Notes: generated by a model from the letters alone, not told the origin. A DNA stretch of 64,000 bases from Cytophagaceae bacterium (GCA_005791165.1 SXXW01000019.1:17890-81889), one strand, 5' to 3'. Positions 14,615 to 58,221 are shown, counted from the first letter of the stretch. Numbers and translations: made by a program.

Positions 14615-14661
14615 CAAAGGTAGGGAAAAGGGCTTGCATTATGAAAACTGATGTATCTTTG
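14615..14661. promoter_or_regulatory. Divergent Bacteroidota -7 boxes (hisH operon on minus, VTT gene on plus)
   Basis: TACCTTTG on minus at 14622-14615 and TATCTTTG on plus at 14654-14661. Confidence 0.6.
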
Positions 14662-14679
14662 TTGGCCCAACCCAAGCCC

Positions 14680-38151: not shown

Positions 38152-38218
38152 TTAACAATTTGTTAATAGTCCACTAACGGTACCGTAATAAGTAAGGACT
38201 TTCATTAAGTTAATTTTG
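38152..38218 (+). promoter_or_regulatory. Candidate Pho-box promoter of the TBDT-lipoprotein operon
   Basis: TTAAC (38152), TTAAT (38163), CTAAC (38174), GTAAT (38185) at exact 11-bp period, then -7 box TAATTTTG at 38211 (26 nt). Confidence 0.7.
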
Positions 38219-41090: not shown

Positions 41091-41117
41091 TTTTTCAATT
41101 TAAATTCTAAAAAAAAA

Positions 41118-42887
41118 GTGATGAAACGCTTACAAACAAACATGTTCAAAGTTTTAGCAATGTTAACTATCGCGGTAGTAACATTAGCGGGTTGCACGAA
41201 GGAAGAAGAAGTTTTCCCAGTGCCTACAATCTCTGCGTCAGGTACACTTGCGGGTATTCCGGGTGCTACAGTTACGGTAAAGGCTTCTATTAATGCACCA
41301 GCAGGTATTAAGTCAATTACTGTTTTAAAGAATGGTGCTCCATTTGATTCGAAAATTATGGCTGGCGAAAAAACCGCTGAATATTCGAAGGATTATGTTG
41401 TTGAAGGTACTGCAGGTGCCACGGTTAACTTTACAGTTCAAGTTACAGATGTTAAGAATCAGGTTTCTTCTTTAGTTGCTATTCCTGTTACTGTTTCAGT
41501 TGTACCTCCAAAGACGATTATTGACGTACAAGGTGTAATTGAAGGAAATGTGACTTGGACAAAAGATAAGATTTATCGTTTGAAAGGTTATGTACGTGTA
41601 GGAGAAGAAGCTGTTTCTGGAACAATAACAAAAAAAGGCCAATTAACTATTCAAGCTGGTACAATTATCATTGGCGATAAGGCTACAAAAGGAACCTTAA
41701 TCGTTCAACGTGAATCTAAATTGATCGCGGAAGGTACTGTATCTGAGCCGATTATCTTTACTTCTGCTGAAGGTATTGGTTCACGTTCTCCAGGTGATTG
41801 GGGTGGTGTTGTAATTTGTGGAAAAGCTCCAAACAACTTAACAGGTGTTGCGGAATTAGAAGGTGGTTACAAAGGATTCCACGGTGGTACTGTAGCTGAT
41901 GATAATTCAGGTTCATTAAAGTATGTTCGTATTGAGTATGCTGGTATTCCATTGAATCCAAATCAAGAGATTAACTCATTAACGATGGGTTCAGTAGGTT
42001 CAGGAACGAAGATTGAATACATCATGGCTTCTTTTGGATTGGATGATTCATTTGAGTGGTTTGGTGGTACTGTAAATTGTAAGTATTTAGTTGCTTATAA
42101 AGGAACGGATGACGATTTCGACATGGACAATGGCTACTCAGGTACAGTTCAGTTTGGATTAGGTTACCGTGATGGTAATTTGGCTGACGTGTCTGGATCA
42201 AATGGTTTTGAAATTGATAATGATGCAGCTGGATCAAATCTTGCTCCATTTACATCGGCAACACTTGCTAACTTCTCTATCATCGGTGCCAAAGGAAAGT
42301 CGTCTGATTACTTAGATGCCAACTTCCAAAATGGAGCTCAATTGCGTCGTAATGCTAAAGTGAAAATTTACAATACATTTATCACAGGTTATCCAGCAGG
42401 ATTATACATCGACAGTCAGCGTGGTGCTGCAAAGACAAATGCGGCTAATGGAGAACTAATTGTTAAGAATGTTGTTATCGCTGGTACAACGGGCTGGGGA
42501 ACAACTGGATTTACGTCACTTAACTCAGGTCTTTATGGATTTGGAGTGCCAGTAGTTAATGAGGAGCAAATCGCTCGTACAGGTTCTGCTGGAACAGTAG
42601 CTACACGTCCAATTGAAATTGGTACTGTTTCTGCATCGGCGTGGTTCGCTGCGATAGCAGGAAACAAAACCTTGACTTCGACTGCAAATACAGGTATTTC
42701 ATCTGCTTTATGGTCAGCTCGTCCTACGTTAACATTGACAGAAGGAGCATCTGAGTCTTTAATTGGTACTGCATTGCCTACGTTAGCGGGTACTACAGCA
42801 ACTGATTTTGTTGGTGCATTCAAAGATTCTGATTGGACAGCTGGTTGGTCAGAATTCAATCCTAACTCGATTGTTTACATCAAGTAA
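41118..42887 (+). CDS. Surface lipoprotein (Ig-like domain plus beta-helix-like domain), TBDT partner
   Basis: Lipobox LAGC; PGDWGGVVICGKAP, DDNSGSLKYVRIEYAG, DDSFEWFGGTVN, DDDFDMDNGYSG, SNGFEIDND; not SusD-like. Confidence 0.75.
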   Translation: MMKRLQTNMFKVLAMLTIAVVTLAGCTKEEEVFPVPTISASGTLAGIPGATVTVKASINAPAGIKSITVLKNGAPFDSKIMAGEKTAEYSKDYVVEGTAGATVNFTVQVTDVKNQVSSLVAIPVTVSVVPPKTIIDVQGVIEGNVTWTKDKIYRLKGYVRVGEEAVSGTITKKGQLTIQAGTIIIGDKATKGTLIVQRESKLIAEGTVSEPIIFTSAEGIGSRSPGDWGGVVICGKAPNNLTGVAELEGGYKGFHGGTVADDNSGSLKYVRIEYAGIPLNPNQEINSLTMGSVGSGTKIEYIMASFGLDDSFEWFGGTVNCKYLVAYKGTDDDFDMDNGYSGTVQFGLGYRDGNLADVSGSNGFEIDNDAAGSNLAPFTSATLANFSIIGAKGKSSDYLDANFQNGAQLRRNAKVKIYNTFITGYPAGLYIDSQRGAAKTNAANGELIVKNVVIAGTTGWGTTGFTSLNSGLYGFGVPVVNEEQIARTGSAGTVATRPIEIGTVSASAWFAAIAGNKTLTSTANTGISSALWSARPTLTLTEGASESLIGTALPTLAGTTATDFVGAFKDSDWTAGWSEFNPNSIVYIK

Positions 42888-42901
42888 AAAATTTATTTCC
42901 C

Positions 42902-42937
42902 AGGTCGCTGCCTAATGCTAGGTGGCGACCTTTTTTT
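42902..42937 (+). terminator. Intrinsic terminator
   Basis: AGGTCGCTGCCTA-ATGC-TAGGTGGCGACCT followed by a T run. Confidence 0.85.
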
Positions 42938-42946
42938 AGTACACCA

Positions 42947-43498
42947 ATGAATAAACTTAAATCCCTCCTGTTTTGTGGATTATTTTTTCTAGCTAGCTGT
43001 CATTCCAAAGATGAAGCTGCATTTTATTATTCTAAGCCTGAACAAGATACCTTGGTAACTAACATCATCAGTATCATAAGCGAAAAGCCTGCTTATGCAT
43101 CAGATTCAACTAAGTTTCAGGCTCGATTTAGGTCTGAATATGTAAAACGTTTACCCGAGTTTCAGTTGATCAATCTCTCAAAAGATAGTTCTGGAACGTA
43201 TACTTATTTCCTCAGTAGGCCCGTAGCAGGACGCAAAGATTTGAGAAGGGGTGTTTTAGGGACTTTTACACTAAAGCCCAATACGCTTGAAATAGACCAG
43301 TTTGAGGAGGTGGCGAATACCCCACATTTTGATGAAGAAACGGTCAAACAGCGTGGAGGCTTTTTATTTAATGCATTAGTCAAGCAAGGCAATATTACTG
43401 AATATTTGAAAATGAAACATTATGTTGAGTGGCCTGACGCATCACTCATTTATGATAAGAAAAAGAGATCTTGGGTGTCTACCATTGGTCTCAATTAA
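42947..43498 (+). CDS. Hypothetical lipoprotein
   Basis: Lipobox LASC; 183 aa; no recognised domain. Confidence 0.65.
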   Translation: MNKLKSLLFCGLFFLASCHSKDEAAFYYSKPEQDTLVTNIISIISEKPAYASDSTKFQARFRSEYVKRLPEFQLINLSKDSSGTYTYFLSRPVAGRKDLRRGVLGTFTLKPNTLEIDQFEEVANTPHFDEETVKQRGGFLFNALVKQGNITEYLKMKHYVEWPDASLIYDKKKRSWVSTIGLN

Positions 43499-43681: not shown

Positions 43682-44944
43682 TTATTTCAATCTTCTGTAA
43701 AAATAAAGGCTCGATAAGCTACTGATCATAAGACCTGCAATTCCCATTATCACAATCCAAGTGAAGAATAGGGACGGCAGATTTAAATTGGGTAATATGA
43801 AACCTGTGAAAAGCAACAACACATTATAGCCCAAGTATCCAATAGAGTCCACGATATACATTAAAAAGCCTATGTTGGCCTTGTGTCTAGTGATGGCAAT
43901 CATCCGCTCAAAAACCGAGGTGGTTATCGTTAAATAAGGCAAATAGATACCAAACCCTGTTAACACAATTAACCAGAATGGATCTAGTTGATTCACTCCC
44001 CACAATCCTGCGATAAGTAAAAATAGGTAGCCTGTTGCGATCGCTGACATACTGATAAAAAAGGCGATGTGGTTTTTCTTAATTAAAACCAGGCTACCGT
44101 TGATGACTAATATTCCTACCGTAACCCAAATTTCCGTTTGTGAATAGATGGATGCCTCGCCTACAAAACCTAAATATTTCCATATTTCAGGGGCAAAATC
44201 AGAACGAATTCCTCTTAAAAGTGAAGCAAATAGATACAATAAGCTAATGCATAGAATTCCAGGCCACAGCTCTTTAACTAGTGCGATGCGATCTTTCTGA
44301 GTCATGGCCGACCTTTCCGCTCGGTCTTCCTTGTCCTGCTCGGTGGGCCTAGGAATTTTTGTCAGCATCCATACAAAAAACACGAAAGGCAAAGTATAGA
44401 TCAAGCCTGCCAACGAAGGCATCCAATGTTCAGCGATGGATATATTTAATAGCCAGGTGCCTACAGATTTAGAAACACCATCTGCTAATATAAAGCTGCT
44501 TCCCAATGCCGCTATAAATAATTCGGTGTTTTTTTTGCCCTCCAAAAAGCCTTGAATGTAGCCAAAAATCATACCCAATGGCAACCCATTGATTACTAAA
44601 AAAACAATGCTGTAAGGCCTTGGAACTAGGCCAAATCCTACCAAGGCAAGCTCTGCAATGAGAATACTAATCAAAATAGCACGCGTCCTCTTTTCCCACG
44701 AAATCCCTGAAACGATGAATATTCCACACCATTTGGATAACATGTAACCGGCAATCTGAGAAGATATCAAAATTGATTTCCATGGAATTCCTATCCAATA
44801 TTGGTCTGTGTATAATCCCGCTGTAAAAGGTTTTCTAAATCCATATACGCAAAAATAACAGCCAAAAGCCGCTATCATGGACCATAATGGATGGGTAAAT
44901 ATTAGTTTGCCAGAAAAATTTACTCGACTTTTAATGGAGTTCAT
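43682..44944 (-). CDS. DUF5690-family multi-pass (MFS-like) membrane protein, putative phosphonate permease
   Basis: About 11-12 TM segments; AFGCYFCVYGFRKPF, QIAGYMLSK, NGLPLG, FLEG, SFILADG, FERMIA, GFLMYIVDSIGYLG. Overlaps the phnZ stop by 4 nt. Confidence 0.75.
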   Translation of the reverse strand: MNSIKSRVNFSGKLIFTHPLWSMIAAFGCYFCVYGFRKPFTAGLYTDQYWIGIPWKSILISSQIAGYMLSKWCGIFIVSGISWEKRTRAILISILIAELALVGFGLVPRPYSIVFLVINGLPLGMIFGYIQGFLEGKKNTELFIAALGSSFILADGVSKSVGTWLLNISIAEHWMPSLAGLIYTLPFVFFVWMLTKIPRPTEQDKEDRAERSAMTQKDRIALVKELWPGILCISLLYLFASLLRGIRSDFAPEIWKYLGFVGEASIYSQTEIWVTVGILVINGSLVLIKKNHIAFFISMSAIATGYLFLLIAGLWGVNQLDPFWLIVLTGFGIYLPYLTITTSVFERMIAITRHKANIGFLMYIVDSIGYLGYNVLLLFTGFILPNLNLPSLFFTWIVIMGIAGLMISSLSSLYFYRRLK

Positions 44945-45486
44945 TTAACAAAAGACTCCATGTAGGGAACGTAAAACGATAATTCTTTTACTTGTAAATT
45001 GGCTATTTTGGCTTGATCATCGAATCGCCTTAATTTAACCGCATCTGCGTAATATGGATTCTTTTCAAATTCTTTACATTCATCGGCCGACATAGGACCT
45101 CCTTGTAAACCTAAGCTGATTATAGAAGGCTCACTTAAAATATCTAGATATTCCGGCTCTACGGTACATAAATATCTTTTTGCCGCCACATGCAATCGCA
45201 CGGGCTCCACTACTTCTGGCGTAAAATATTGTTGGAGAAAGTCATTGGCTAAGTTCTCGTGTAAATCATCGATCCCATTTTCTGGGGCATCATCAGGTAA
45301 ATGATGCAATAAATGTCCAATATCATGTAGAATGCCTGCGACGATAATATTCGTTTTTTCACCTGCCTCATCGGCAAAATGTGCTGCTTGTAACGCATGT
45401 TCCAATTGGCTTACGGCCTCTCCTCCGTATTGAGAATCCCCATGATTTTCAAATAAATGAATTACTTTTTCTATTATCTCAGACAT
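44941..45486 (-). CDS. phnZ: HD-domain diiron phosphonate oxygenase, PhnZ type
   Basis: YGGE, LEHALQ, LHDIGH, HE, LHVAAKRYL, SIISL.LQGG, LRRFDD.AK. The ATG at 45486 is preferred over TTG 45495. Confidence 0.82.
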   Translation of the reverse strand: MSEIIEKVIHLFENHGDSQYGGEAVSQLEHALQAAHFADEAGEKTNIIVAGILHDIGHLLHHLPDDAPENGIDDLHENLANDFLQQYFTPEVVEPVRLHVAAKRYLCTVEPEYLDILSEPSIISLGLQGGPMSADECKEFEKNPYYADAVKLRRFDDQAKIANLQVKELSFYVPYMESFVK

Positions 45487-45589
45487 ATTATTCAAAATTT
45501 TGCTTGTAAATTAGCAAGCATTAGTCTGGGAAAGAAGGGTTCTAAGATTTATTTTACTTTTGTTTACGCGCCCTTAACAATTTCATAAA

Positions 45590-46030
45590 ATGAAAGCAGT
45601 TTTCAACATTCGAAAAGTTATTGAAACCGATGAAAATGCTATTCGAACCTTATTGGATGAACTAGAAAATCGTATTTCAGACCCTACTGTTTTTCAGCAT
45701 ATTTTCAAGCATTACCTAATTAGAGAAAATGCGCTATTTTTTGCAGCTGAAAATGACCAAAAAGAAATCATTGGTTTTATTACCTGCTTGGGCCAACTAT
45801 TATTGCACCACGAAGGATTAGTGTATGAGATTGAGGAATTAATCGTCACTCAAACGTATCATGGAAAGGGGATAGGCCGATTATTAATCAACCAAGTTCG
45901 AGAAGAATTAAAGCCTTACGATATAAAATCGATTGAGGTAACTTCCAATAAACGGAGAACACAAGCACATAAATTTTATAAAGCTGTAGGCTTCAAGAAT
46001 TCGCATGAAAAATTCACTTGTTATTTCTGA
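45590..46030 (+). CDS. phnO: Aminoalkylphosphonate N-acetyltransferase-like GNAT
   Basis: LLHHEG, EIEELIV, GKGIG, EVTSNKRRTQAHKFY, SHEKFT align with enterobacterial PhnO motifs; phosphonate gene context. Confidence 0.7.
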   Translation: MKAVFNIRKVIETDENAIRTLLDELENRISDPTVFQHIFKHYLIRENALFFAAENDQKEIIGFITCLGQLLLHHEGLVYEIEELIVTQTYHGKGIGRLLINQVREELKPYDIKSIEVTSNKRRTQAHKFYKAVGFKNSHEKFTCYF

Positions 46031-47172
46031 TAAAGTTTTTGAATATACTCAGAAGTAAATCCAGGGCTCGTTGTCATCCCTTTCCCCCCAATGCCATTGA
46101 TAATGTGAATCACATCATCCACTTGTTTGGTGAATACCTCAGAGTGGGTTCCTTGTATATAAAATCCAGCCCATGTGGCGTCAACATCCCATTGAGGTAG
46201 GTCAATTATTTTTTTGGCTTCATGGAGCATCAGTTCATTGATTTCTGTAGAGATCTCAAACCCAAAGTCAGCTTGTTTGCCAGCTTGAACATATTCATGG
46301 GAATCTCCCAAAATAATGGATCCGTCATCCGCTTGTTTAAACAAAATGTGAATGCCTTTATTTTGCAAAATAGTTTGTTCTGGCGTGGATGTTAATTTTT
46401 TATGCGATGGGCAAGAATGGAAACTTTCATATCGACGAATCGTGAGTCCGGTAAGAATATTTGGTTTTAATATAGGCTTTTGCGCTGCTAAACGGAGCAT
46501 TTGTAGTTTGCTGATTTTTAAATCCGAGACTGGATAATGTTCGGGCAATAAAAATTGTGTGTCTCGGCCATTGGCTATAATCACTTTTTCTGACCAAAAA
46601 TTTTGGTTTGTTGTTGTGAATACCCTGGCAATTCCTCTTTTTTTCTCTACGCCAACCACCGCGCACAAATTTTGGTAGTGTAGATCCATGTGTTGGATCA
46701 TAAATTCTCGAACTCGGTGCACCATCAATCTAGGATTTAAGGATGCTTCCTCGGATAAAAATAAGCCTCCTTTTACATAGTCCTTTTTAAAATGTGGATT
46801 TGATTTCTGACAATCATCCGCTGAATGTAATTTATTTGAATATCCTCGCTCATCAAATAGTTTCTGAATCTCTTCTAAGAGCGTTAATTCTTGGTCATCC
46901 GAAGCAAGATACCAGGATCCGTTGGGAACCAAGGAGATATTCGTTTCACTTTGTAAGTCCTTGTAAATCTGCAATGATTTACGGCCATAATCGAACCACT
47001 TGTCCATGGATTGTCCCGAGGGAACTGCTTGACCAAAATTCCGAAAACTTGCTTCAAAAGGTTGTGAGTCTTTCTCTAATAATAGAACTGTTTTCCCCTT
47101 TTTTAGTGCATGATATGCGCTAAAAGTGCCTATAATTCCACCGCCAACAACAATTAAATCATATTTTTTCAT
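46021..47172 (-). CDS. FAD-dependent oxidoreductase, TIGR03364 (phosphonate-associated amine oxidase type)
   Basis: VVGGGIIG, ASFRNFGQ, KLQML, GLTIRRYESF, GIHILFKQ..DGSIILGDSHEY, GIGGKGMT. Confidence 0.85.
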   Translation of the reverse strand: MKKYDLIVVGGGIIGTFSAYHALKKGKTVLLLEKDSQPFEASFRNFGQAVPSGQSMDKWFDYGRKSLQIYKDLQSETNISLVPNGSWYLASDDQELTLLEEIQKLFDERGYSNKLHSADDCQKSNPHFKKDYVKGGLFLSEEASLNPRLMVHRVREFMIQHMDLHYQNLCAVVGVEKKRGIARVFTTTNQNFWSEKVIIANGRDTQFLLPEHYPVSDLKISKLQMLRLAAQKPILKPNILTGLTIRRYESFHSCPSHKKLTSTPEQTILQNKGIHILFKQADDGSIILGDSHEYVQAGKQADFGFEISTEINELMLHEAKKIIDLPQWDVDATWAGFYIQGTHSEVFTKQVDDVIHIINGIGGKGMTTSPGFTSEYIQKLYQK

Positions 47173-47896
47173 TTTTTAAATCTTCAATGATTTGAATGAG
47201 GTCATCTATTTTATTTAATAATCCATCATTAGGGAATGAGGCTAATTGTTCGCGGGTATGAGTTCCATTGCACACGCCTAGGGCAAGTCTCACCCCGGCA
47301 TTTTTACCAAAAGCTAGGTCAACAGGCGTGTCACCCACATTGATAACTTCGGATAAGTTTGTTATCCCAATTTGCTTCATGGCAAACTGAATCATTTTAG
47401 GGGATGGTCGCCCTTCACCTGCTTCATCTGGAGTCACTGAAAGATGAATGCCTGATTTATTCCTAAGGTTAATAAAATTAGAATTTAAGGATTGGCTCCA
47501 GCCTAGTTTAGTCAAAATGATGTTCGCTACGCTTCGATAAAAACCCGTTGTGAGTGCAATGAAAATTCCGTTTTTGTGTAAATAATCAAAAAGTTCTTGG
47601 CATCCCTCCGTTTGAAATACTGGGTTTTTTCGATAGTGGTTTTCTAAAATTGTCTTAAAATCTTCGAAGGATTGTAACGCTTTTTCTGAAATAGAGGAAT
47701 CTGAAGAGCCGAGCTGCTCAGCCCATAGCATTGTGAAAACTTCTAATTTGGCATAACCCTGCAAGGCCAAAATCCGTTCATCGCTGGCCCACAATTCATT
47801 TTTAATAGCAGCCTCTTTGAAGCATTTCTCAACTTCATGTTGGTCTAGTACGGTTGTTCCAGCCATATCTAAGATGACTAATTTGATTGGATTCAT
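47159..47896 (-). CDS. Phosphonatase-like HAD hydrolase (TIGR03351/PhnX-like)
   Basis: DMAGTT, cap GYAK lysine, LTTGF, GRPSPKMI, VGDTPVD, GTHTREQL. Confidence 0.82.
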   Translation of the reverse strand: MNPIKLVILDMAGTTVLDQHEVEKCFKEAAIKNELWASDERILALQGYAKLEVFTMLWAEQLGSSDSSISEKALQSFEDFKTILENHYRKNPVFQTEGCQELFDYLHKNGIFIALTTGFYRSVANIILTKLGWSQSLNSNFINLRNKSGIHLSVTPDEAGEGRPSPKMIQFAMKQIGITNLSEVINVGDTPVDLAFGKNAGVRLALGVCNGTHTREQLASFPNDGLLNKIDDLIQIIEDLKNEKI

Positions 47897-47917
47897 GATT
47901 TGAGAAATAGTTTATGT

Positions 47918-47974
47918 TAAAATTAACAAATTCAATCTCCCCTTTATGTTACTACAATATAAATTTTTTATTAA
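47918..47974 (-). promoter_or_regulatory. Candidate Pho-box promoter of the phosphonate operon
   Basis: On minus: TTAAT (47974), TTTAT (47963), GTAAC (47952), then TAATTTTA 27 nt later (47925). Confidence 0.55.
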
Positions 47975-48076
47975 GGAAATAAAATTGAATTATTCCTGTA
48001 TTTAATATTATGTTTTATGCGTGATAATACTTCGGTTATACTAAGAAAACAATTTGAACACATTGCCTTATTTTTC

Positions 48077-48132
48077 TTAATGATTTCTTATTTTTTGCTT
48101 AAGGGACATGATGAGTACTCTCTTTATTTTTG
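48077..48132 (+). promoter_or_regulatory. Candidate Pho-box promoter of susC/susD
   Basis: TTAAT (48077), TTATT (48088), TTAAG (48099), each preceded by C, then TATTTTTG at 48125 (26 nt). Confidence 0.6.
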
Positions 48133-48159
48133 TCAAAATTTTAATAAACTAAATTATTT

Positions 48160-51100
48160 ATGACAAAGAATTTACAAAAACAGGGATCCAAAATGACTCT
48201 TAGAAGAAGTTTTTGGTTCATTTTCACCTTGTGCCAGTTGGCCTTCTTGGGTGCCCATGCCCAAGAGCGCTCGATTACAGGGGTGGTCATCGGGAGTGAT
48301 GACAATGCAGGTATTCCAGGTGTTTCCATTAAGGTTAATGGAACAAACAAGGGAACAAACTCAGGTGCAAATGGACAGTTTACAGTCTCTGCGTCAACTA
48401 ACTCAATTTTGGAGTTTTCCATGATTGGTTATACAAGCAAAACTGTTACTGTGGGTAATCAATCTACATTAAAGGTTATTTTGGATGTGGATAATCGCCA
48501 ATTACAAGAGGTGGTAGTAACAGCCTTAGGTATTAAAAAAGATGTTCGCCGTATTGGTGTGGCCATTCAATCGGTAGATGGTTCAAGCACAATCAAAGCA
48601 CGTGAGCCAAATGCAATCAACGCATTATCTGGTCGCGTGGCTGGTTTGACCGTTGGAGCTCAACCGGAATTATTGAGAAAACCTAATATCTCATTACGTG
48701 GTAGTTCAACAATTTTATATGTAGTAGATGGTGTACCGATCAACTCTGATACTTGGAATATTTCTCCAGATGATATCGAAACCTATTCCGTTTTGAAAGG
48801 AGCTTCAGCTTCGGCTCTTTATGGTTTCCGTGGTAAGAACGGTGCGATTTTAATCACTACTAAACGTGGTTCTGCTGACAAGCGTGGTTTTTCTGTTGAG
48901 GTTAACTCATCTACCCAAATTCAAAGCGGTTTCTATGCCATTCCAGAAGTGCAAGACGAATATGGTCCTGGTGATCATGGTTCATATGCGTTTGGAGATG
49001 GTAAAGGGGGTGGATTGAATGATGGTGATTATGATGGGGGTTGGGGTCCAAAATTCAATGGCCAATTAATTCCTCAGTATGATTCACCAGTGGATCCTAT
49101 TACTGGCAAGCGTTCAGGTACTCCTTGGATCGCACGTGGAAAAGATAACTTGAAGCGTTTCTTAGAAGCCGGTATTTTATCTACCAATAACATTTCAGTT
49201 GCAGCGACTGGAGACAAATACAATTTGCGTTTTTCTACGTCACATATCTATCAAAAAGGTATTGTTCCTAATACCCAATTGAACATGACGAACTTCAACG
49301 TAACAGCCGATTACAAATTCTCTAATAAATTGAAATTTGAGTCGAACTTACAGTACAACCGTCAATACACACCGAATATTCCAGACGTAAATTACGGTCC
49401 CAACTCGATCATTTATAACATCGTTTATTGGGCAGGAGCAGACTGGAACATGGATGATATGAAAAACTACTGGCAAAAAGGTAAAGAAGGTGTTCAACAA
49501 ATCTATGCGGAATACCAACGTTACAATAACCCTTACTTCATGTCTTACGAGTGGTTACGTTCGCATTATAAGACGGATATCATCGGACAAGCAGCTTTGC
49601 GTTACACGTTTAATGAAAACTTGAACTTATTAGCTCGTACGCAAGTAACCACTTGGGATATGGTTCGTACAGAGAAATTCCCTTACTCTGCAGGTACGTA
49701 TGGTCGTGATGAGCGTCGTGGCGATTATCGTGAGGATCGTCGTTCATTGTTTGAGAATAATACAGAATTATTATTAACGTTTGACAAGGATATCTTACCA
49801 GGCTTTAATACAAAAATTAATGCGGGTGCATCTCAACGTGTTTTTCAATACAAGTCGATGTTCGCTTCTACAAACTATTTAAACGTTCCAGGATTATATA
49901 ACTTCTCGAACTCGGCTCTGCCTGTTCAAGTTGGTAATTTTGGTTCTGACATGAATGTTCTTTCTGCTTACTACTCCGCAGATTTTTCTTACAAGAAATA
50001 TTTGACAGTTTTCGCTACAGGTCGTGTTGATAAATTGTCAACATTGCCAGCGGGTAAAAACTCGTTCTTCTATCCATCATTTGGAGCGGTTACCGTTTTA
50101 TCTGATTATGTGAATTTACCAGAGGTAGTTTCTTTCTTGAAATTCCGTGGTTCATTTGCAAACGTTAAGGATGGTTTGACATCATCTACGATTGATAACC
50201 GCGTGGGAACTTATTCAGGTGAAAACTATAACTCACCTTATGATGGTCCTTCATACCAAAACAACACGGTATATTCAACGGGTTTCTTTTACAATAACCA
50301 AACAGGAGCAACTTATGGGAACGAATTGAGTAATCCAAACTTGAATCCATCAGAGACTTCTCAGACGGAATTTGGTATGGACTTACGCTTACTTAAAAAT
50401 CGTATTGCAATCGATGCGGCTTATTTCATCTCGAATGATGGTCCTTCGATCTTCTCTTTACCTATCTCATCTACATCAGGTTACACATCCGCTTTAGTGA
50501 ATGGTATCAAGACGCAGAAGAAAGGTTATGAGATCTCCGTAACAGGAACGCCAATTCAAATAGCAGACTTTAGCTGGGATGTATTAGCGAACTACTCTAC
50601 TTTCCAGCAGACGTTAACTGAAATTTATCCAGGTATCACGAACTTAAATACGTTCTTAAAAGTAGGGGATCGTACGGATAGAATTTATGGTTCTGCCTTT
50701 GTTCGTACCCCTACGGGAGAAATCATTAATACTAAAGCTGGTATTCCAGAAAGATTAGCTGGAACGCAGTCGCAATACTTAGGTAATGCTAACCCGGATT
50801 TCGTTTTCGGTTTGAATAATAAGTTTACTTATAAAAATGTAAGCTTAAGCTTCTTATTTGATGGTCGTATCGGTGGTAAAATTATTAACTATACACAGCA
50901 ACAAACGTACCGTGGTGGTCGTCACATTGGAACGACACAAGGTATTTTCGCTGAAGCTCGTCCACAAGATGCCTTAGGTGTGAAAGCATTCGTAGGTCAA
51001 GGTGTGGTTGTTTCGAATGGCGCTGCGATTAAATACGATGTAAACGGAAAGGTGACTAACTTTTCTGAATTACAATTCGCGCCTAACACCGTAAAGACTT

Positions 51101-51381
51101 TTGTACAAGATTACGTGGGTCGTTATTATAACACAAACGAAGGAAACTTAATGAGCCGTTCTTTCGGAATGTTAAAAGAAGTTGTGGTAGGTGTTAAACT
51201 TCCATCTACGTGGTTTGGTAAGTCAGTTTCTGGCGCGAACATTTCTTTCGTAGGACGTAACCTATTGTACTTCGCTGAAGCAAAAGATACTGATTTATCT
51301 CAGTACTTGACGGACGGCGCTACAGGTACTCAAACTCCATCAGTTAGAAGCTATGGTGTTAACTTAAACTTAGTATTCTAA
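48160..51381 (+). CDS. SusC/RagA-family TonB-dependent transporter
   Basis: LQEVVVTALGI, LYVVDGVP, DDIETYSVLKGASASALYGFRGKNGAILITTKRG, C-terminal PSVRSYGVNLNLVF. The start may be 48193. Confidence 0.95.
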   Translation: MTKNLQKQGSKMTLRRSFWFIFTLCQLAFLGAHAQERSITGVVIGSDDNAGIPGVSIKVNGTNKGTNSGANGQFTVSASTNSILEFSMIGYTSKTVTVGNQSTLKVILDVDNRQLQEVVVTALGIKKDVRRIGVAIQSVDGSSTIKAREPNAINALSGRVAGLTVGAQPELLRKPNISLRGSSTILYVVDGVPINSDTWNISPDDIETYSVLKGASASALYGFRGKNGAILITTKRGSADKRGFSVEVNSSTQIQSGFYAIPEVQDEYGPGDHGSYAFGDGKGGGLNDGDYDGGWGPKFNGQLIPQYDSPVDPITGKRSGTPWIARGKDNLKRFLEAGILSTNNISVAATGDKYNLRFSTSHIYQKGIVPNTQLNMTNFNVTADYKFSNKLKFESNLQYNRQYTPNIPDVNYGPNSIIYNIVYWAGADWNMDDMKNYWQKGKEGVQQIYAEYQRYNNPYFMSYEWLRSHYKTDIIGQAALRYTFNENLNLLARTQVTTWDMVRTEKFPYSAGTYGRDERRGDYREDRRSLFENNTELLLTFDKDILPGFNTKINAGASQRVFQYKSMFASTNYLNVPGLYNFSNSALPVQVGNFGSDMNVLSAYYSADFSYKKYLTVFATGRVDKLSTLPAGKNSFFYPSFGAVTVLSDYVNLPEVVSFLKFRGSFANVKDGLTSSTIDNRVGTYSGENYNSPYDGPSYQNNTVYSTGFFYNNQTGATYGNELSNPNLNPSETSQTEFGMDLRLLKNRIAIDAAYFISNDGPSIFSLPISSTSGYTSALVNGIKTQKKGYEISVTGTPIQIADFSWDVLANYSTFQQTLTEIYPGITNLNTFLKVGDRTDRIYGSAFVRTPTGEIINTKAGIPERLAGTQSQYLGNANPDFVFGLNNKFTYKNVSLSFLFDGRIGGKIINYTQQQTYRGGRHIGTTQGIFAEARPQDALGVKAFVGQGVVVSNGAAIKYDVNGKVTNFSELQFAPNTVKTFVQDYVGRYYNTNEGNLMSRSFGMLKEVVVGVKLPSTWFGKSVSGANISFVGRNLLYFAEAKDTDLSQYLTDGATGTQTPSVRSYGVNLNLVF

Positions 51382-51399
51382 TATTCTTCATTTTAATAA

Positions 51400-52998
51400 A
51401 TGATTCAAGCAATGAAAATCAAAAATATAATTTTAGGTATGTTGAGCTTCTCCGTAATTGCATTAAGCAGTTGTGAGAAGACCTTCGACCAGTTGGAGAA
51501 AGACTCTAACCGCGCGGTACAAGTTCCTGCATCATTAGTATTACAGTCGATCGAATTAAACGTCATGAACGACAATGGTCGTCCATTCTCTGGGGAGATG
51601 CGTTACAATCAATTTTATTGCTCTAACTATAATTATTATGCAAATAATGAATATAACTTTGGTCAAATGCCAAACCAATATACTACGTTGAAAAACGTAG
51701 TAAAGATGGAAGAGGAAGCGAAGAAGTTAGGTTTAGCTGACGTGAATGGATACTCCGCTTTAGGTAAGTTCTTCCGTGCGTATTTCTTTGATCAAATGTC
51801 GAAGCGTGTAGGGGATTTACCGATGACGGAAGCCTTGAAAGGGATTCAAAACACGGCTCCTAAATATGATTCGCAAAAAGTTATCTACACACAAATCTTG
51901 AAGTGGTTAGATGATGCGAATGCTGATATGACAGTTTTGGCTGCCAAAGGAGAGACTATCTCAGGTGATTTCTATTTCAATGGAGATTTGAAAAAGTGGC
52001 AAAAAGTGGTTAACGCTTATCGTTTACGTGTGTTGATCACTTTGTCTAAGAAAGATGCAGATGCGGAATTAGGTGTTAAAGCGAAATTTGCTGAAATGCT
52101 AACTAACCCTTCGAAGTACCCCTTGTTTGGATCGAATGGTGAGTCTTTGCAATTTGTTTGGAACAACTTCAACAAGTATCCTTCTAATCCAGATAACTTC
52201 GGTTTCGATGCAACGCGTCAAAACATGGCTTCTACGTATGTAGGATTTTTATCTAAGACACAGGATCCACGTGTGATGGCTACTTGTGAACCTGCAGGTG
52301 CTGATTTGAAGGCTGGTAAATTAGCTTCAGACTTTACGGCTTACCGTGGAGCAGGTTCAGGTGATAATATTGATGATATGGCGAGAAATGCAGGTTTGTC
52401 GAATGGTGCAGGTTTTGCTCCCGGTATCTACTCTTTCCAAAACCGTGCGCGTTACTATCAAACATATACAGGTGAAAATACATTCCTCGTGGGGTATCCT
52501 GAATTATGTTTCAATATCGCGGAAGGTTATGCACGTGGATGGGCAACGGGTTCAGCGGAAGATTGGTACATTAAAGGAATCAAGGCTTCTCAGTCGTTTT
52601 ATGGTATTGCTGAAGGTGCTAATACCATGACGTACTCGAAGTCAGGTGCACGTGATGCTGCCGACTTAGTAAAGTATACGGTTAACTTCAACTTCAATAC
52701 GTTTTATGAGCAATCTTCAGTTAAATATGACGCGGCTACAGGAATTGAGAAAATCGTTTCTCAAAAATATGCTGCCTTCTTCATGAACTCAGGGATGGAA
52801 GCTTATTTCAACTGGAGAAGAACGGGATTCCCTGCGTTCTCTTCGGGAGTTGGTAACGGAAACTCAAATCGTATTGCTTTGCGTTGGATCTATCCAGGTA
52901 CGGAAAGAACAGCTAACGCAACGAATTACAAATCAGCTATTGATAGTCAATATGCTGGTAAGGATGATATCAACGACCAAATGTGGTTGATTAAATAA
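51400..52998 (+). CDS. SusD/RagB-family surface lipoprotein
   Basis: Lipobox LSSC, GDLPMTEAL, PKYDSQK, GDLKKWQK, EAYFNWRRTGFP, C-terminal MWLIK; directly after susC. Confidence 0.93.
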   Translation: MIQAMKIKNIILGMLSFSVIALSSCEKTFDQLEKDSNRAVQVPASLVLQSIELNVMNDNGRPFSGEMRYNQFYCSNYNYYANNEYNFGQMPNQYTTLKNVVKMEEEAKKLGLADVNGYSALGKFFRAYFFDQMSKRVGDLPMTEALKGIQNTAPKYDSQKVIYTQILKWLDDANADMTVLAAKGETISGDFYFNGDLKKWQKVVNAYRLRVLITLSKKDADAELGVKAKFAEMLTNPSKYPLFGSNGESLQFVWNNFNKYPSNPDNFGFDATRQNMASTYVGFLSKTQDPRVMATCEPAGADLKAGKLASDFTAYRGAGSGDNIDDMARNAGLSNGAGFAPGIYSFQNRARYYQTYTGENTFLVGYPELCFNIAEGYARGWATGSAEDWYIKGIKASQSFYGIAEGANTMTYSKSGARDAADLVKYTVNFNFNTFYEQSSVKYDAATGIEKIVSQKYAAFFMNSGMEAYFNWRRTGFPAFSSGVGNGNSNRIALRWIYPGTERTANATNYKSAIDSQYAGKDDINDQMWLIK

Positions 52999-53023: not shown

Positions 53024-53054
53024 AAAGGGATAGAAATTTTTTCTATCCCTTTTT
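53024..53054 (+). terminator. Intrinsic terminator after susD
   Basis: AAAGGGATAGAAA-TTT-TTTCTATCCCTTT followed by TT. Confidence 0.8.
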
Positions 53055-53256: not shown

Positions 53257-53312
53257 TTAACATAAATTTAATTTTCCGGCAATCATTAGATTATATACCC
53301 TATTTATTTTTA
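53257..53312 (+). promoter_or_regulatory. Candidate Pho-box promoter of the TBDT-phytase operon
   Basis: TTAAC (53257), TTAAT (53268), GCAAT (53279), then TATTTTTA at 53305 (26 nt). Confidence 0.6.
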
Positions 53313-53330: not shown

Positions 53331-56132
53331 ATGACTAAAAATCTACTTTTATTTTTTACTTTTTTTGCCTTTTGTCACTTTTCGGTAGCTCAAAATGGTA
53401 AATTAATCGGGAAGATTACTGACAATCAAGGGCTTTCGATGCCTGGAGCCACGGTCAAACTGAGTGGCGATTTGACGAAATCACAGGTTTCTGATCAATC
53501 AGGAAAATTCGTTTTTAACTCGTTAAAAAAGGGTAATTACACGGTTGCTATTAGTTACATTGGTTATGAGACGATCATTCAAAAATTAAATTTTGATGCT
53601 GAAGCAAAAGAAATGCTTTTTATTTTAAATGAGAAAGCTATTGAAGGTACCGAAGTTATCGTTGTAGGTGATAGATTAAAGGGTCAGGCAAAGGCGATAA
53701 ACCAACAAAGAAATAATGGCAACATTACGAATGTAGTGTCATCCGATCAGATTGGAAGGTTTCCAGATGCAAATATTGGTGATGCCATGAAGCGTATTCC
53801 TGGAATAACGATGCAGAATGATCAAGGTGAAGCGCGAAATATCATTATAAGGGGAATGGCTGCTGGATTAAATTCAGTTACACTTAATGGAGAGAGGATT
53901 CCATCAGCAGAGGGTGACAATAGAAATGTTCAAATGGATTTAATTCCTTCTGATATGGTTCAAACTATCGAGGTACACAAAGCAGTATTACCTAACATGG
54001 ATGCTGATGCGATTGGTGGTTCAGTCAACTTAATTACTAGAACTGCTCCGAATGCGCTACGTGTATCGGGAACATTGGGTGGTGGGGTTAATTTCTTAAC
54101 CAATAAACCGATTACAAACCTTTCGTTTGTTGTTGGAAATAGAATATTTAATGACAAACTAGGTTTTGTATTTTCAGGGTCTTATAACGACCATATTTTT
54201 GGCTCAGATAATTTTGAGGGAGTTTGGGCAAAGACAAAAAACCCAGCATATCCAGTCGTTTTAAGTGGTTTTGACTTAAGAAAATATGATGTGCAGCGTA
54301 TTAGGAGAAGTAGTTCCTTGGCACTAGACTACCAGTTGGCCAAAGGGCATACGATTTTTTTAAATGCCATGTACAATTGGAGAGACGATCGCGAGAATAG
54401 ATACCGTTTTCGTGTTGACAGATTAAATACACCTATTGAAGCAACTTCATTTAAAGATATTTCAAAGAATTTATATGAAATTCAAGGTCGTGTAGCTATT
54501 CAGACAAAAGGGGGTATTGATAACGATAGAAATCAAAAAACACGGTTAGAGGACCAAAGAGTAGCTAATGTAACTTTGTCAGGAGAAGACTTTTTTGGCA
54601 AATTAAAAATGAATTGGTCGGGTACGTATGCTTACGCCCAGGAAGATAGACCCAATGAAAGATATATTACCCACCGGGGTAATGCTAGAGTGAGTGTAGA
54701 TGCGCGCGATCCGTTTAAGTATATAGTAAATTTGGTTGACAAAAATAGCGCTAATTTATTGGCACTTAATACAATTTATGAGTCGAATAATTTTACTTCT
54801 GAAAGTGATTTGAATGCAAAAGTGGATTTCGAATTGCCTTTAGCAAACAAAGATAATTTTGTTAAATTTGGTGGTAGAGTAAGAAATAAGAGCAAGGAAC
54901 GAATTAACACCTATGATATTTACGCGCCCATAAAAAATTTAGGAGCTACCGGAAATACGTTGGGTCAATTGCCTCTTTCAAATCAAAATGAACGTATTTT
55001 CTTAAATGGTCCACAGTATGTGCCTGGAGCTTTTGTGACAAATGAGTATTTGGGTAAATTGGATTTTTACAATTCTTCACTTTTCAAAAAAACGGATGCA
55101 CTTGCAGAGTATATTACTTCCAACTTTGAGGCAACTGAAACAATAACTGCTGGTTATGCGATGGCTGATCTAAAACTTTCTTCCAAATTGTCATCAACCT
55201 TTGGTGTTAGAATGGAAAATACCTCAATTTCATATAACGGATATAGTTTTGATAACGTTAAAGGAAAAGCAAGTAAAACTGCGGATGTTTCTCAATCTTA
55301 TTTAAATATTCTACCAAGTGCTCATTTAAAATATGATCTGTCTCAAAACTCAATTTTGAGAGCGGCTTGGACTAATACCCTTGCTCGTCCAGCATATTAC
55401 AGCTTAGTTCCTTTTGTAAATTACAGCCCGGACAATCAAGTTTTAACTAGAGGTAATCCTAATCTTGAAGCTACCAAAGCGATGAATTTCGATTTGATGT
55501 TCGAAAATTATTTTGAGTCGATTGGTTTAGTTTCAGTAGGCGTATTCCAGAAAAATTTAAAGGATTTTATTTATGATAAAACTTCTTTGAACGTTACAGA
55601 TCCTTTGTATGGTCAATTAGTAAGTTCCACAAGACCTGAAAATGGTGGTACGGCAGGTGTTAGCGGGTTTGAAACTTCCTTTCAAAGACAGCTTGACTTT
55701 TTGCCAGGAATCTGGAAAGGTTTTGGGGTATATGCAAACTATACCTATACAAATTCCACTACTACCGGAATTGAAGGGAGAGAAAATGATAAATTAGCTC
55801 TTCCTGGAACGGCGAATCACATGTTTAACAGTTCGCTATCTTTTGAAACTAAGAAGTTGGTTTTACGTGTTTCATTAAATATGACGAGTGATTACGTTGA
55901 TGCCATCGGTGGAGATGCATTTAGCGATATTTTTTATGACAAACAGACATTTTTGGATGTAAATGCATCTTATGCATTTAACAAAAATCTTCGCGTATAC
56001 TTTGAAGCAAATAATCTTACTAACCAACCATTGCGTTATTATCAAGGAGTTAGAGAAAGAACATTCCAAGAAGAAATGTATAATTCAAGAATTGGTTTTG
56101 GAATAAAATATGATCTTTTTGGTAAAAAGTAA
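53331..56132 (+). CDS. TonB-dependent receptor, phytase-linked type
   Basis: IGRFPDANIGDAMKRIPGI, DQGEAR, MDADAIGGSVNL, NNLTNQPLRYYQG. True start is the ATG at 53331 (MTKNLL, signal peptide), not TTG 53235. Confidence 0.9.
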   Translation: MTKNLLLFFTFFAFCHFSVAQNGKLIGKITDNQGLSMPGATVKLSGDLTKSQVSDQSGKFVFNSLKKGNYTVAISYIGYETIIQKLNFDAEAKEMLFILNEKAIEGTEVIVVGDRLKGQAKAINQQRNNGNITNVVSSDQIGRFPDANIGDAMKRIPGITMQNDQGEARNIIIRGMAAGLNSVTLNGERIPSAEGDNRNVQMDLIPSDMVQTIEVHKAVLPNMDADAIGGSVNLITRTAPNALRVSGTLGGGVNFLTNKPITNLSFVVGNRIFNDKLGFVFSGSYNDHIFGSDNFEGVWAKTKNPAYPVVLSGFDLRKYDVQRIRRSSSLALDYQLAKGHTIFLNAMYNWRDDRENRYRFRVDRLNTPIEATSFKDISKNLYEIQGRVAIQTKGGIDNDRNQKTRLEDQRVANVTLSGEDFFGKLKMNWSGTYAYAQEDRPNERYITHRGNARVSVDARDPFKYIVNLVDKNSANLLALNTIYESNNFTSESDLNAKVDFELPLANKDNFVKFGGRVRNKSKERINTYDIYAPIKNLGATGNTLGQLPLSNQNERIFLNGPQYVPGAFVTNEYLGKLDFYNSSLFKKTDALAEYITSNFEATETITAGYAMADLKLSSKLSSTFGVRMENTSISYNGYSFDNVKGKASKTADVSQSYLNILPSAHLKYDLSQNSILRAAWTNTLARPAYYSLVPFVNYSPDNQVLTRGNPNLEATKAMNFDLMFENYFESIGLVSVGVFQKNLKDFIYDKTSLNVTDPLYGQLVSSTRPENGGTAGVSGFETSFQRQLDFLPGIWKGFGVYANYTYTNSTTTGIEGRENDKLALPGTANHMFNSSLSFETKKLVLRVSLNMTSDYVDAIGGDAFSDIFYDKQTFLDVNASYAFNKNLRVYFEANNLTNQPLRYYQGVRERTFQEEMYNSRIGFGIKYDLFGKK

Positions 56133-56150
56133 CGAATAGATCTTTTCATT

Positions 56151-56189
56151 AAACGTTTGCTATTTTTATAGCAAACGTTTTTTATTTTT
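56151..56189 (+). terminator. Intra-operon hairpin with T-tract between the TBDT and the phytase
   Basis: Perfect inverted repeat AAACGTTTGCTA / TAGCAAACGTTT followed by TTTATTTTT. Confidence 0.65.
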
Positions 56190-56196
56190 ACACCCT

Positions 56197-57267
56197 ATGA
56201 AATTTCGCTTTGTTATTTTTTTGTTGGCATGTTTGCTAAATATCCACTTTAGCAGTATTTCGCAAGAACGTACCTCTAAAATTCCTACAATAGAAGTTTT
56301 CCCTGAGTTTATAAGTGATACGGTTAGGTTCGATACAGATGATCCAGCCATTTATTACAATCGAAAAAATCCTGCTAAAAGCTTAATCATGGGTACTGAT
56401 AAGGGGGGTAAGATTGGTCAGGGAGGAATCTATGTATTTGATCTTTTTGGCAAAAATATTGAGGGTAAAAATCTGCTTGGCATTAATCGCCCTAACAATA
56501 TTGATATAGCTTATGGGCTTTTGGGAAAAGGTAAAAGTAAAATTGATATTGCTGTATGTACCGAACGAAATACGAATAAAATTCGTGTAATAAAGTTGCC
56601 CGAAATGCAATTAATAGATGGAGGTGGTATAGATGTTTTTCAAGGCGAAATTCAGCGTTCTCCCATGGGAATTGCATTATTCACGGACGCAAAGACAAAT
56701 AAAATTTATGCGATAGTAAGTCGAAAAGATGGTCCTTTGCAAGGGTATTTATTTCAGTATTTACTACAAGTAGGTGATTCGGGAATTGTTACCGCCAAGC
56801 TAGTTAGAAAGTTTGGTCAATATTCGGGTTTGAAAGAAATAGAATCCATTGCGGTAGATAATGAATTAGGTTTCGTTTACTATTCTGATGAAACTGTAGG
56901 TGTTCGAAAGTATTATGCACATCCGGATAGTTCGGGGCGCGAATTAGCTTTGTTCGCCAAAACTGGCTTCACAGAAGACCATGAAGGTATTTCAATTTAC
57001 AAGACCTCAGCAAAGAAAGGTTATATTTTAGTTTCGGATCAACAAGCGAATCAATTTCACGTTTTTAGGAGGGAGGGTGAGCCAGCTGATAAGCATAAGC
57101 ATGAATTGATTAAGATTATAAGGACACAAACTAATGAGAGTGATGGCAGTGAAATCACAAGTTATAAGCTTAACAGAAGATTTAGATATGGTTTGTTTGT
57201 GGCTATGTCAAATAATAAGACATTTCATTTTTATTCTGTCAAGAATTTTTTTGATGAACAATTATAA
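56197..57267 (+). CDS. Beta-propeller (Ca-dependent) phytase
   Basis: DTDDPAIY, GTDK, NNIDIAY, LVRKFG, EIESIAVD, YSDE, DHEGISIY, VSDQ, ESDG; signal peptide. Confidence 0.9.
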   Translation: MKFRFVIFLLACLLNIHFSSISQERTSKIPTIEVFPEFISDTVRFDTDDPAIYYNRKNPAKSLIMGTDKGGKIGQGGIYVFDLFGKNIEGKNLLGINRPNNIDIAYGLLGKGKSKIDIAVCTERNTNKIRVIKLPEMQLIDGGGIDVFQGEIQRSPMGIALFTDAKTNKIYAIVSRKDGPLQGYLFQYLLQVGDSGIVTAKLVRKFGQYSGLKEIESIAVDNELGFVYYSDETVGVRKYYAHPDSSGRELALFAKTGFTEDHEGISIYKTSAKKGYILVSDQQANQFHVFRREGEPADKHKHELIKIIRTQTNESDGSEITSYKLNRRFRYGLFVAMSNNKTFHFYSVKNFFDEQL

Positions 57268-58067: not shown

Positions 58068-58221
58068 GTATTTTGATTTCAATATTGGATAAATATCCTC
58101 CACATTATATTACGATTAATAAATGATTAAACATCTGAATTAACATAAATTAGTCATTGGGGTTATATTATATTTCGGGGCCAATGATTACATAGTGACC
58201 TAACTTTTAAATGAAATTCCA

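Follow-up and report, generated by a model that had tools for sequence, protein, structure and literature searches.

A SusC/SusD locus of freshwater Aquirufa predicted to serve aminophosphonate-type phosphate utilization

We analyzed a 64,000-nucleotide stretch of DNA from a Cytophagaceae bacterium (GCA_005791165.1 SXXW01000019.1:17890-81889; hereafter the window, from whose first letter positions are counted), focusing on positions 43682-52998, where a susC/susD pair lies back to back with genes resembling those of phosphonate breakdown. The host is a member of the freshwater genus Aquirufa (Cytophagales), and the same locus was also found in cultured Aquirufa strains, e.g., A. antheringensis 30S-ANTBAC (locus L012) and A. 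originis KTFRIE-69F (locus L021). The best explanation, to which we assign a probability of roughly 0.7, is that this is an aminophosphonate-type phosphate utilization (Pus) locus, an assignment made by gene content and not by orthology to named PusD forms. A considerable pool of the organic phosphorus in soil and fresh water consists of aminophosphonates, and their sources include phosphonoglycans and the phosphonolipids of ciliates, amoebae, and Bdellovibrio. To our knowledge, Bacteroidota have no classical PhnCDE/C-P lyase systems.

Organization of the Locus

A preliminary description of this DNA, prepared from the sequence, had proposed seven open reading frames (ORFs), all of which were recovered at the positions listed below together with the adjoining noncoding features.

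43682-44944, minus strand: DUF5690 permease, 420 aa (PF18943, E 1.9e-120)
44941-45495, minus strand: PhnZ/TmpB-family HD-domain diiron oxygenase (TIGR03276, 230 bits, cut-off 214.6)
45590-46030, plus strand: GNAT acetyltransferase (PF00583; NF007530, 63 bits, cut-off 142)
46021-47172, minus strand: FAD-dependent amine oxidoreductase (TIGR03364, 346 bits, cut-off 285; PF01266)
47159-47896, minus strand: PhnX-like HAD (TIGR03351, 168 bits, cut-off 219; TIGR01422, 79 bits, cut-off 220)
47897-48159: divergent control region, 263 bp
48160-51381, plus strand: susC, 1073 aa (TIGR04056, 448 bits)
51400-52998, plus strand: susD, 532 aa (PF12771, 203 bits)
53024-53052, plus strand: intrinsic terminator 3' of susD, with a 13-pair stem followed by a T run

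As had been described, susC and susD diverge from the catabolic genes across the 263-bp spacer. The HAD and oxidase genes share 14 nt, the oxygenase and DUF5690 genes share 4 nt, and the GNAT gene sits between these two pairs on the opposite strand, overlapping the 3' end of the oxidase gene by 10 nt. The reported absence of a carbohydrate-active enzyme (CAZyme) or regulator adjoining susCD also held in a Pfam survey of the neighboring genes (35-60 kb). Glycoside hydrolases and polysaccharide lyases were found neither in the window nor as recurrent genes in related loci, and a polysaccharide utilization locus (PUL) acting on glycans was rejected because CAZymes are absent.

The genome under study is a 2.57 Mb assembly that is 84% complete, in which the window occupies C13:17890-81889. 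Searches of this whole genome at curated cut-offs gave no PhnJ, PhnD, PhnW, PhnA, or PhnY, which extends the earlier claim that C-P lyase and related systems are absent, and no match to phosphoenolpyruvate (PEP) mutase. Thus, the locus is the sole recognizable phosphonate system of this genome, and it should be catabolic rather than biosynthetic. A biosynthetic locus was considered and rejected since PEP mutase was not found, scavenging being more likely.

Linkage of the SusCD Lineage to Phosphonate Genes

To follow this transporter across species, 67 loci were gathered by SusD similarity alone (45-97% identity), and all ORFs of the 39 loci from outside Aquirufa were clustered. Every Aquirufa locus with enough flanking sequence retains the full arrangement. 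Outside the genus, where SusD identity is 45-66%, gene orders and orientations vary, and about 25 of the 34 informative loci contain at least one of PhnZ, the FAD-dependent oxidase, the HAD, DUF5690, and PhnW. The taxa represented outside the genus include Runella, Spirosoma, Nibrella, Siphonobacter, Pseudarcicella, Cyclobacteriaceae, Chitinophagaceae, Terrimonas, Ginsengibacter, and Sediminibacterium. After SusC and SusD themselves, the most recurrent families in the 39 loci were PhnZ (17), the oxidase (17), an alkaline phosphatase (AP)-superfamily enzyme (14), DUF5690 (14), and the HAD (12), followed by an exported beta-propeller-PF04185 phosphoesterase (7) and a helix-turn-helix (HTH)-cupin regulator (5); metallophosphoesterases, GDPD, and NPP are also present among related loci. 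The supposition that orthologs of this susCD keep company with PhnZ, TIGR03364, the PhnX-like HAD, and DUF5690 in Cytophagales and Chitinophagales, and not with glycoside hydrolases, was therefore borne out.

In Terrimonas, the same SusCD lineage is accompanied by PhnW (486 bits), PhnY (672 bits), and PhnA (509 bits), all scoring over their cut-offs, and a Sediminibacterium locus contains PhnW and PhnY homologs, assigned by ORF cluster membership and without model scores. PhnY is a phosphonoacetaldehyde dehydrogenase and PhnA a phosphonoacetate hydrolase. The presence of two unrelated pathways for one substrate on one transporter lineage is our strongest comparative argument for a shared substrate similar to 2-aminoethylphosphonate (AEP).

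We then examined an even sample of 301 Cytophagales genomes, in which a SusD ortholog (defined by E < 1e-90) was detected in 37, PhnZ in 50, and DUF5690 in 64. PhnZ is present in 31 of the 37 genomes with the SusD ortholog and in 19 of the 264 without it, and it lies within 10 kb of the SusD ortholog in 26 of the 37. DUF5690 is located within 15 kb of SusD in 19 genomes. The two families also travel together: among the 37 genomes that have both DUF5690 and PhnZ, the genes are no more than 15 kb apart in 27, of which 11 are without this SusD.

Predicted Hydrolytic Route

The assignment of the amine oxidoreductase to the TIGR03364 type proved sound (346 bits, well over the cut-off of 285). PbfD1 of A. 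baumannii falls in the same family, and the two characterized PbfD enzymes oxidize both N-methyl-AEP (M1AEP) and AEP, in each case to phosphonoacetaldehyde; PbfD and PhnX constitute a biochemically established, PhnW-independent pathway (PMC10590968). No Bacteroidota PbfD was among those listed in the supplement of that study. We predict from family membership that the oxidase of the locus is of the PbfD type, yielding phosphonoacetaldehyde from AEP or N-methyl-AEP.

The HAD had been introduced as PhnX-like, a description which is partly supported: the catalytic residues of PhnX are retained, but the protein scores under the cut-offs of both phosphonatase models, TIGR03351 and TIGR01422. Its best model is TIGR03351 ("PhnX-like"), ahead of the canonical PhnX model TIGR01422, and its orthologs in Runella and Chitinophagaceae likewise score under the phosphonatase cut-offs. 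A profile built from 13 homologs aligned over the full length with PhnX of B. cereus (2iof; E 5.6e-35). Residues D10, A12, K50, R163, D189, and D193 are invariant across the 13 homologs, and D10, A12, and K50 correspond in the alignment to D12, A14, and the Schiff-base lysine K53 of 2iof. Phosphonatases have the signature DxAGT in the position where phosphatases carry DxDxT. The hydrolytic route is coherent because the catalytic aspartate, alanine, and Schiff-base lysine of PhnX are all retained, and the HAD is predicted to be a phosphonoacetaldehyde hydrolase.

A different substrate for this pair of enzymes was also considered. The oxidase might act on 1-hydroxy-2-aminoethylphosphonate (HAEP) to give 1-hydroxy-2-oxoethylphosphonate, which would be cleaved by the HAD, leaving PhnZ for another hydroxyphosphonate. 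The description of TIGR03364 indeed guesses HAEP as the substrate (quoted in PMC10590968), and the HAD falls under the canonical PhnX cut-off and matches the separate model TIGR03351 best. However, phosphonoacetaldehyde is the product that both characterized PbfD enzymes form from M1AEP and AEP (PMC10590968), and the Schiff-base lysine and DxAGT motif of PhnX are intact in the HAD, so that we regard the HAEP route as highly improbable.

An Orphan PhnZ

PhnZ, another member of the proposed gene set, is present at the family level (TIGR03276). The likely true start of this HD-domain oxygenase is the ATG at 45486. It scores under the cut-offs of the TmpB and PhnZ1 equivalog models, and its matches in PDB, which cover almost the whole length, are TmpB (6npa, 140 bits) and PhnZ (4mlm, 101 bits).

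We searched for the 2-oxoglutarate-dependent hydroxylase (PhnY*/TmpA) that should act before such an oxygenase. None is present in the window, and no dioxygenase cluster recurs in the 39 related loci. A trans-encoded PhnY* was not detected either: the eight PhyH-family ORFs of the genome score at most 45 bits on NF052437 (cut-off 500), and its single TauD ORF gives only a weak BBOX match and is not close to the PhnY*/TmpA models. With no PhnY*, the PhnZ route cannot start from AEP and could accept only substrates that are already 1-hydroxylated. The two parallel C-P cleavage routes, hydrolytic and oxidative, of the preliminary description are therefore only half retained: the hydrolytic one is coherent, whereas the oxidative one is incomplete for AEP.

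PbfA is reported to be an accessory enzyme in PhnWX clusters which takes 1-hydroxylated aminophosphonates (PMC12366243). By analogy, PhnZ of the Aquirufa locus most likely takes naturally 1-hydroxylated aminophosphonates.

Transport Proteins and the GNAT Gene

In addition to TIGR04056, SusC matches the SusC signature TIGR04057, and it contains a signal peptide and CarbopepD_reg_2 and Plug domains; no STN domain was found in it. SusD matches PF12741 (120 bits) besides PF12771 and has a lipobox, LSSC25, with Cys25 as the predicted lipidated residue. SusD is thus predicted to be a surface lipoprotein, for which an aminophosphonate-type ligand would be our inference from the neighboring genes.

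DUF5690 had been proposed to be the importer that delivers the compound to the cytoplasm. A fold of the MFS, of the organophosphate/anion type, was supported by modeling, but the substrate is a deduction. The AlphaFold2 model (pLDDT 89, pTM 0.88) adopts an MFS fold, and its top Foldseek matches comprise G6PT1/SLC37A4, sialin, SLC37A2, and VGLUT2, whereas GlpT ranks 35th; TM-scores are 0.66-0.73 to G6PT1/SLC37A4 and 0.65 to GlpT. R37 and K38 in transmembrane helix 1 (TM1) and R244 and R247 in TM7 are invariant in 15 homologs. A profile of these 15 proteins found no PDB chain at E <= 1 and Pfam returned PF18943 alone, so it is the predicted fold by itself that places DUF5690 in the MFS. Our literature search found no published function for the family. 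We suggest DUF5690 as a candidate inner-membrane aminophosphonate importer.

On the other hand, the naming of the acetyltransferase as PhnO could not be upheld. The GNAT protein gets 63 bits from the PhnO model NF007530, for which the cut-off is 142, although this is its best NCBIfam match, and the gene is antisense to the other four catabolic genes. It is found at the same position in all Aquirufa loci and is absent in nearly all genera besides Aquirufa. It is a genus-specific addition and PhnO-like at best.

Candidate Regulatory Repeats

Both directions of the locus had been said to carry a candidate Pho array. A phased match does exist on the HAD side, whereas the susC side contains a related element. 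The following sites were identified, the last of them outside the locus.

47948-47973, minus strand: TAAY-N7-TWAY-N7-TAAY match, 52 bp upstream of the HAD gene
48077-48091, plus strand: TTAAT-N-ATTT-N-TTAT element TTAATGATTTCTTAT, 33 bp upstream of the susC -7 box
48125-48132, susC side: Bacteroidota -7 box TATTTTTG
38153-38189, plus strand: cleanest array, TTAAC-N6-TTAAT-N6-CTAAC-N6-GTAAT, upstream of the TonB-dependent receptor (TBDR) gene at 38271-41090

The susC-side element is kept in all Aquirufa species. When the spacers of 19 Aquirufa loci were footprinted, the -7 box (TAyTTTTG) proved invariant; TTCTTAAY-N-ATTTCTTR is conserved toward susC, and the HAD side has phased repeats of TTAC/TTAA.

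The strict pattern TAAY-N7-TAAY-N7-TAAY has three matches in the window, compared with 0.29 expected, and two of the three lie at 38153-38189. A relaxed phased pattern gave 15 intergenic matches in the 183 kb of intergenic DNA of the genome. Five of the 15 are located in the window between 37980 and 58129, upstream of a 118-aa ORF, the TBDR, the HAD operon, and a second GNAT gene (57439-57984); elsewhere, matches were observed upstream of a PF04185 phosphoesterase, a metallophosphoesterase, and another TonB-dependent receptor. In one A. antheringensis locus (L012), a four-site array (12161-12198) lies upstream of PiT. Four Runella loci have the phased motif 83-84 bp upstream of susC, and in other genera the motif also occurs upstream of TBDR, esterase, and oxidase genes (17 matches in 621 kb, 15 of them intergenic). 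This pattern is as a PhoB-type winged-helix regulon would look, and the repeats are a plausible but putative Pho array.

At 58104-58130, 120 bp upstream of the second GNAT gene (57439-57984, minus strand), there are a three-site phased array and a TTAATCATTTATTAA element, and this gene could be part of the same regulon. The whole genome yielded a single PBP_like_2 (PstS-like) gene; it follows a TonB-like gene, with no evident pstSCAB operon. Used as an anchor for the Pho box, it showed no clear array. The classical high-affinity Pst system may be missing, in a genome that is 84% complete.

The promoter data also bear on the question of which nutrient the locus provides. It is possible in principle that the locus serves nitrogen or carbon nutrition through mineralization of AEP that is insensitive to inorganic phosphate (Pi), and not the scavenging of phosphorus. 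AEP transporters, e.g., AepP and AepXVW, can respond to their substrate and not to Pi, in which case AEP is used as a nitrogen source (PMC8316502); moreover, the HTH-cupin regulator that lies beside susC in five related loci would suit induction by substrate. However, the window contains no local regulator, the neighbors of the locus are phosphorus-acquisition genes, and the candidate operator is common to the promoters of the phytase-TBDR, PiT-OprP, and phosphoesterase genes. We therefore consider a nitrogen or carbon function improbable and phosphorus scavenging the preferred role.

Exported Esterases and the Phosphorus Neighborhood

Outside Aquirufa, the commonest gene directly 3' of SusD encodes an exported AP-superfamily protein of ~363 aa (L061:11756-12847 and 13 other loci). 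Among solved structures, the closest relative is an NPP with a marginal match, and no NCBIfam model matches the protein. This protein is a candidate phosphonate-ester hydrolase of an uncharacterized subfamily. The predicted exported esterases that follow SusD in other genera fit the uptake of phosphonate esters, e.g., lipid headgroups. Given also that PusCD1/2 import glycerophosphoinositol (GroPI; bioRxiv 10.64898/2026.09.03.749221), phosphonolipid headgroups would be a reasonable SusCD ligand.

Two genes outside the window, each with the phased motif upstream, encode related enzymes. One is an exported beta-propeller-PF04185 phosphoesterase of 807 aa (G000:C14:85236-87659), which shares 53% identity with its SusCD-adjacent counterpart in locus L041, and the other is a Tat-signal metallophosphoesterase of 308 aa (G000:C13:85696-86622), 45% identical to those within loci L032 and L033. 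In Aquirufa, the esterases of the system seem to be dispersed, at sites unlinked to the locus.

Genes on both sides of the locus and in sister species complete the phosphorus island, as follows.

53332-57267, plus strand: TonB-dependent receptor with beta-propeller phytase (TIGR01782, 501 bits; PF02333, 127 bits)
25-1317, 3633-4685, and 12261-14971 of A. antheringensis L012: phosphorus additions (PhoA, PHO4/PiT, OprO/P)

For the downstream receptor ORF, alignment with orthologs and a clear signal peptide moved the listed start from TTG 53235 to ATG 53332. With this start, a TTAAC-N6-TTAAT repeat at 53257-53272 falls in the promoter and not in coding sequence. Upstream, the region 38271-43498 encodes the TonB-dependent receptor (939 aa, 38271-41090) followed by proteins of 589 and 183 aa, described as two lipoproteins, for which neither Pfam nor NCBIfam gave a match. 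These genes resemble the Pi-induced pairs of a TonB-dependent transporter and a hypothetical lipoprotein of Flavobacterium (PMC8115612). In locus L039, a 61%-identical receptor with a five-site array adjoins the SusCD ortholog. In loci of the A. antheringensis type, the catabolic operon includes an additional gene for an exported phosphatase of the PhoA family, and susCD is flanked by genes for two PHO4/PiT transporters and for an OprO/P phosphate porin.

This neighborhood raises the question of whether SusCD is instead a general importer of phosphate esters (phospholipid headgroups, nucleotides, inositol phosphates), with phosphonates entering via porins and DUF5690 and the adjacency of the genes reflecting a shared, co-regulated phosphorus island. 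Much of the evidence above is compatible with such a role: the island has a TBDR with phytase, sister species add exported PhoA, PiT, and OprP, and genes for exported GDPD, NPP-type, PLC/AcpA-type, and metallophosphoesterase enzymes follow SusD in other genera. In addition, a SusD that is 65% identical is present in Dyadobacter without phosphonate genes, and the characterized PusCD ligands are phosphate esters (bioRxiv 10.64898/2026.09.03.749221). But PhnZ is no more than 10 kb away in 26 of the 37 SusD-positive Cytophagales genomes. The linkage outlasts the shuffling of gene order and even a swap of the route to PhnWYA, as expected if an aminophosphonate is the shared substrate. A general phosphate-ester importer is thus judged unlikely, and we continue with the aminophosphonate locus.

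Proposed Mechanism

When Pi is short, a PhoB-like winged-helix regulator would bind the 11-bp-phased TAAY repeats and activate the two divergent operons along with the other genes of the phosphorus island. SusD and the TonB-dependent SusC would capture and import a phosphonate-bearing compound, most likely AEP or its N-methyl or 1-hydroxy forms, either free or esterified as phosphonolipid headgroups. Exported phosphoesterases, whose genes directly follow susD in other genera but are located elsewhere, with the same motif, in Aquirufa, would release the aminophosphonate in the periplasm, from where DUF5690, with its modeled MFS fold and presumed substrate, would move it into the cytoplasm. There, the TIGR03364/PbfD-type oxidase is expected to convert AEP or N-methyl-AEP to phosphonoacetaldehyde, which the PhnX-like HAD would split into acetaldehyde and phosphate. 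The PhnZ/TmpB-type oxygenase may cleave phosphonates that arrive 1-hydroxylated, e.g., (R)-1-hydroxy-2-aminoethylphosphonate, and would have an accessory role like that of PbfA in PhnWX clusters.

Several points weigh against this reading. With regard to the enzymes, the HAD scores under both curated phosphonatase cut-offs, PhnZ is not assignable to a substrate-specific equivalog, no exported esterase is encoded in the locus, and the AP-superfamily enzyme was not detected in this genome. With regard to linkage, some SusD orthologs, among them those of Dyadobacter (65% identity), Arsenicibacter, Haliscomenobacter, Thermoflexibacter, and one Siphonobacter, are without a phosphonate gene at a distance of up to 10 kb, and the counts from the 301 genomes are descriptive and not statistical, because the sampled genomes are related and not independent. 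With regard to regulation, the phased motif was defined after the window had been viewed, and none of the four PhoB-like response-regulator ORFs (e.g., C21:27885-28553), nor the receiver domain of a 1377-aa ORF, reached the PhoB cut-off. The strict pattern has seven matches in the whole genome, no more than roughly extrapolated from the window shuffles; the argument from the motif thus depends on the positions of the matches and not on their number.

If the aminophosphonate reading is true, it would account for the access of Aquirufa and other abundant freshwater Bacteroidota to the aminophosphonate pool; TonB-dependent SusCD transport would gain a new ligand class, and DUF5690 a function. A wider proposal, more tentative and in our estimate slightly short of even odds, is that there is a phylum-wide SusCD lineage for C-P compounds, that DUF5690 proteins are MFS phosphonate permeases, that orphan PhnZ enzymes act on scavenged 1-hydroxy-aminophosphonates, and that the TAAY operator is the Pho box of Cytophagales and Chitinophagales.

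Comparison with Known Systems

Classical PULs likewise have susC and susD in tandem, SusD being a lipoprotein and SusC a TonB-dependent transporter. Unlike them, the window contains no CAZyme, hybrid two-component sensor, SusR-type regulator, or extracytoplasmic function (ECF)/anti-sigma regulator, and neither hybrid sensors nor SusR-type regulators recur among the related loci. The PhnY*/PhnZ and TmpA/TmpB pathways employ the same family of HD-domain mixed-valent diiron oxygenases, but the 2-oxoglutarate dioxygenase partner of these pathways was not found in the genome analyzed here.

With regard to transport across the inner membrane, AepP of Pseudomonas putida is likewise a single-component MFS transporter beside AEP catabolic genes (PMC8316502). 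AepP is a GlpT homolog (28% identical; PMC8316502), whereas DUF5690 belongs to another Pfam family and has no sequence match to solved MFS proteins. In the DUF5690 model, the paired basic residues of TM1 and TM7 are similar to those of organophosphate:Pi antiporters.

The closest counterpart of the oxidase-HAD pair is PbfD2-PhnX of Mariniblastus fucicola, where a FAD-dependent amine oxidase likewise lies beside a phosphonoacetaldehyde hydrolase and PhnW is absent from both cluster and genome (PMC10590968). In contrast to that pair, the HAD of Aquirufa is divergent, under the TIGR01422 and TIGR03351 cut-offs, and its activity is predicted from sequence; moreover, the two Aquirufa genes lie inside a SusCD locus with PhnZ and DUF5690.

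SusCD-like transporters for phosphorus are themselves already in print. Lidbury and colleagues defined Pi-induced, SusCD-like PusCD complexes (PMC8115612), and PusCD1/2 were found to import lipid-derived GroPI for phosphorus (bioRxiv 10.64898/2026.09.03.749221). PusCD-like pairs adjoining genes that target "aminophosphonate" have been noted (PMC8115612; bioRxiv 10.1101/719427; bioRxiv 10.64898/2026.09.03.749221), and a preprint figure legend places phnX and a DAO oxidoreductase beside pusCD (bioRxiv 10.1101/719427). The preliminary description had presented the locus as the best candidate for an undescribed system; this claim has to be withdrawn, as PusCD, the aminophosphonate link, and the oxidase-PhnX route have all been published (PMC8115612; 10.1101/719427; 10.64898/2026.09.03.749221; PMC10590968).

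The ligands of PusCD1/2 are inositol phosphate and GroPI, and their genes are accompanied by those of ECF sigma/anti-sigma factors and phosphatidylinositol-specific phospholipases C (PI-PLCs), whereas the Aquirufa pair is without a local regulator and has PhnZ, a PbfD-type oxidase, a PhnX-like HAD, and DUF5690 as partners. Its SusD belongs to PF12771/PF12741, as against PF07980/PF14322 in PusCD1/2. The Pus systems of Flavobacterium johnsoniae and other plant-associated Bacteroidota share with it the same arrangement of a CAZyme-free SusC/SusD-like pair, phosphorus-releasing enzymes, and inner-membrane organophosphorus transporters.

Taken together, the Aquirufa locus is genuine, well conserved, and of the already known Pus kind, with a function that is predicted from gene content. 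Beyond the published systems, it adds a compact freshwater version without exported esterases, a conserved module of DUF5690 with an orphan PhnZ, the exchange of the route for PhnWYA in Terrimonas (and homologs of PhnW and PhnY in Sediminibacterium), and a candidate operator that is common to the phosphorus island and is found across genera.

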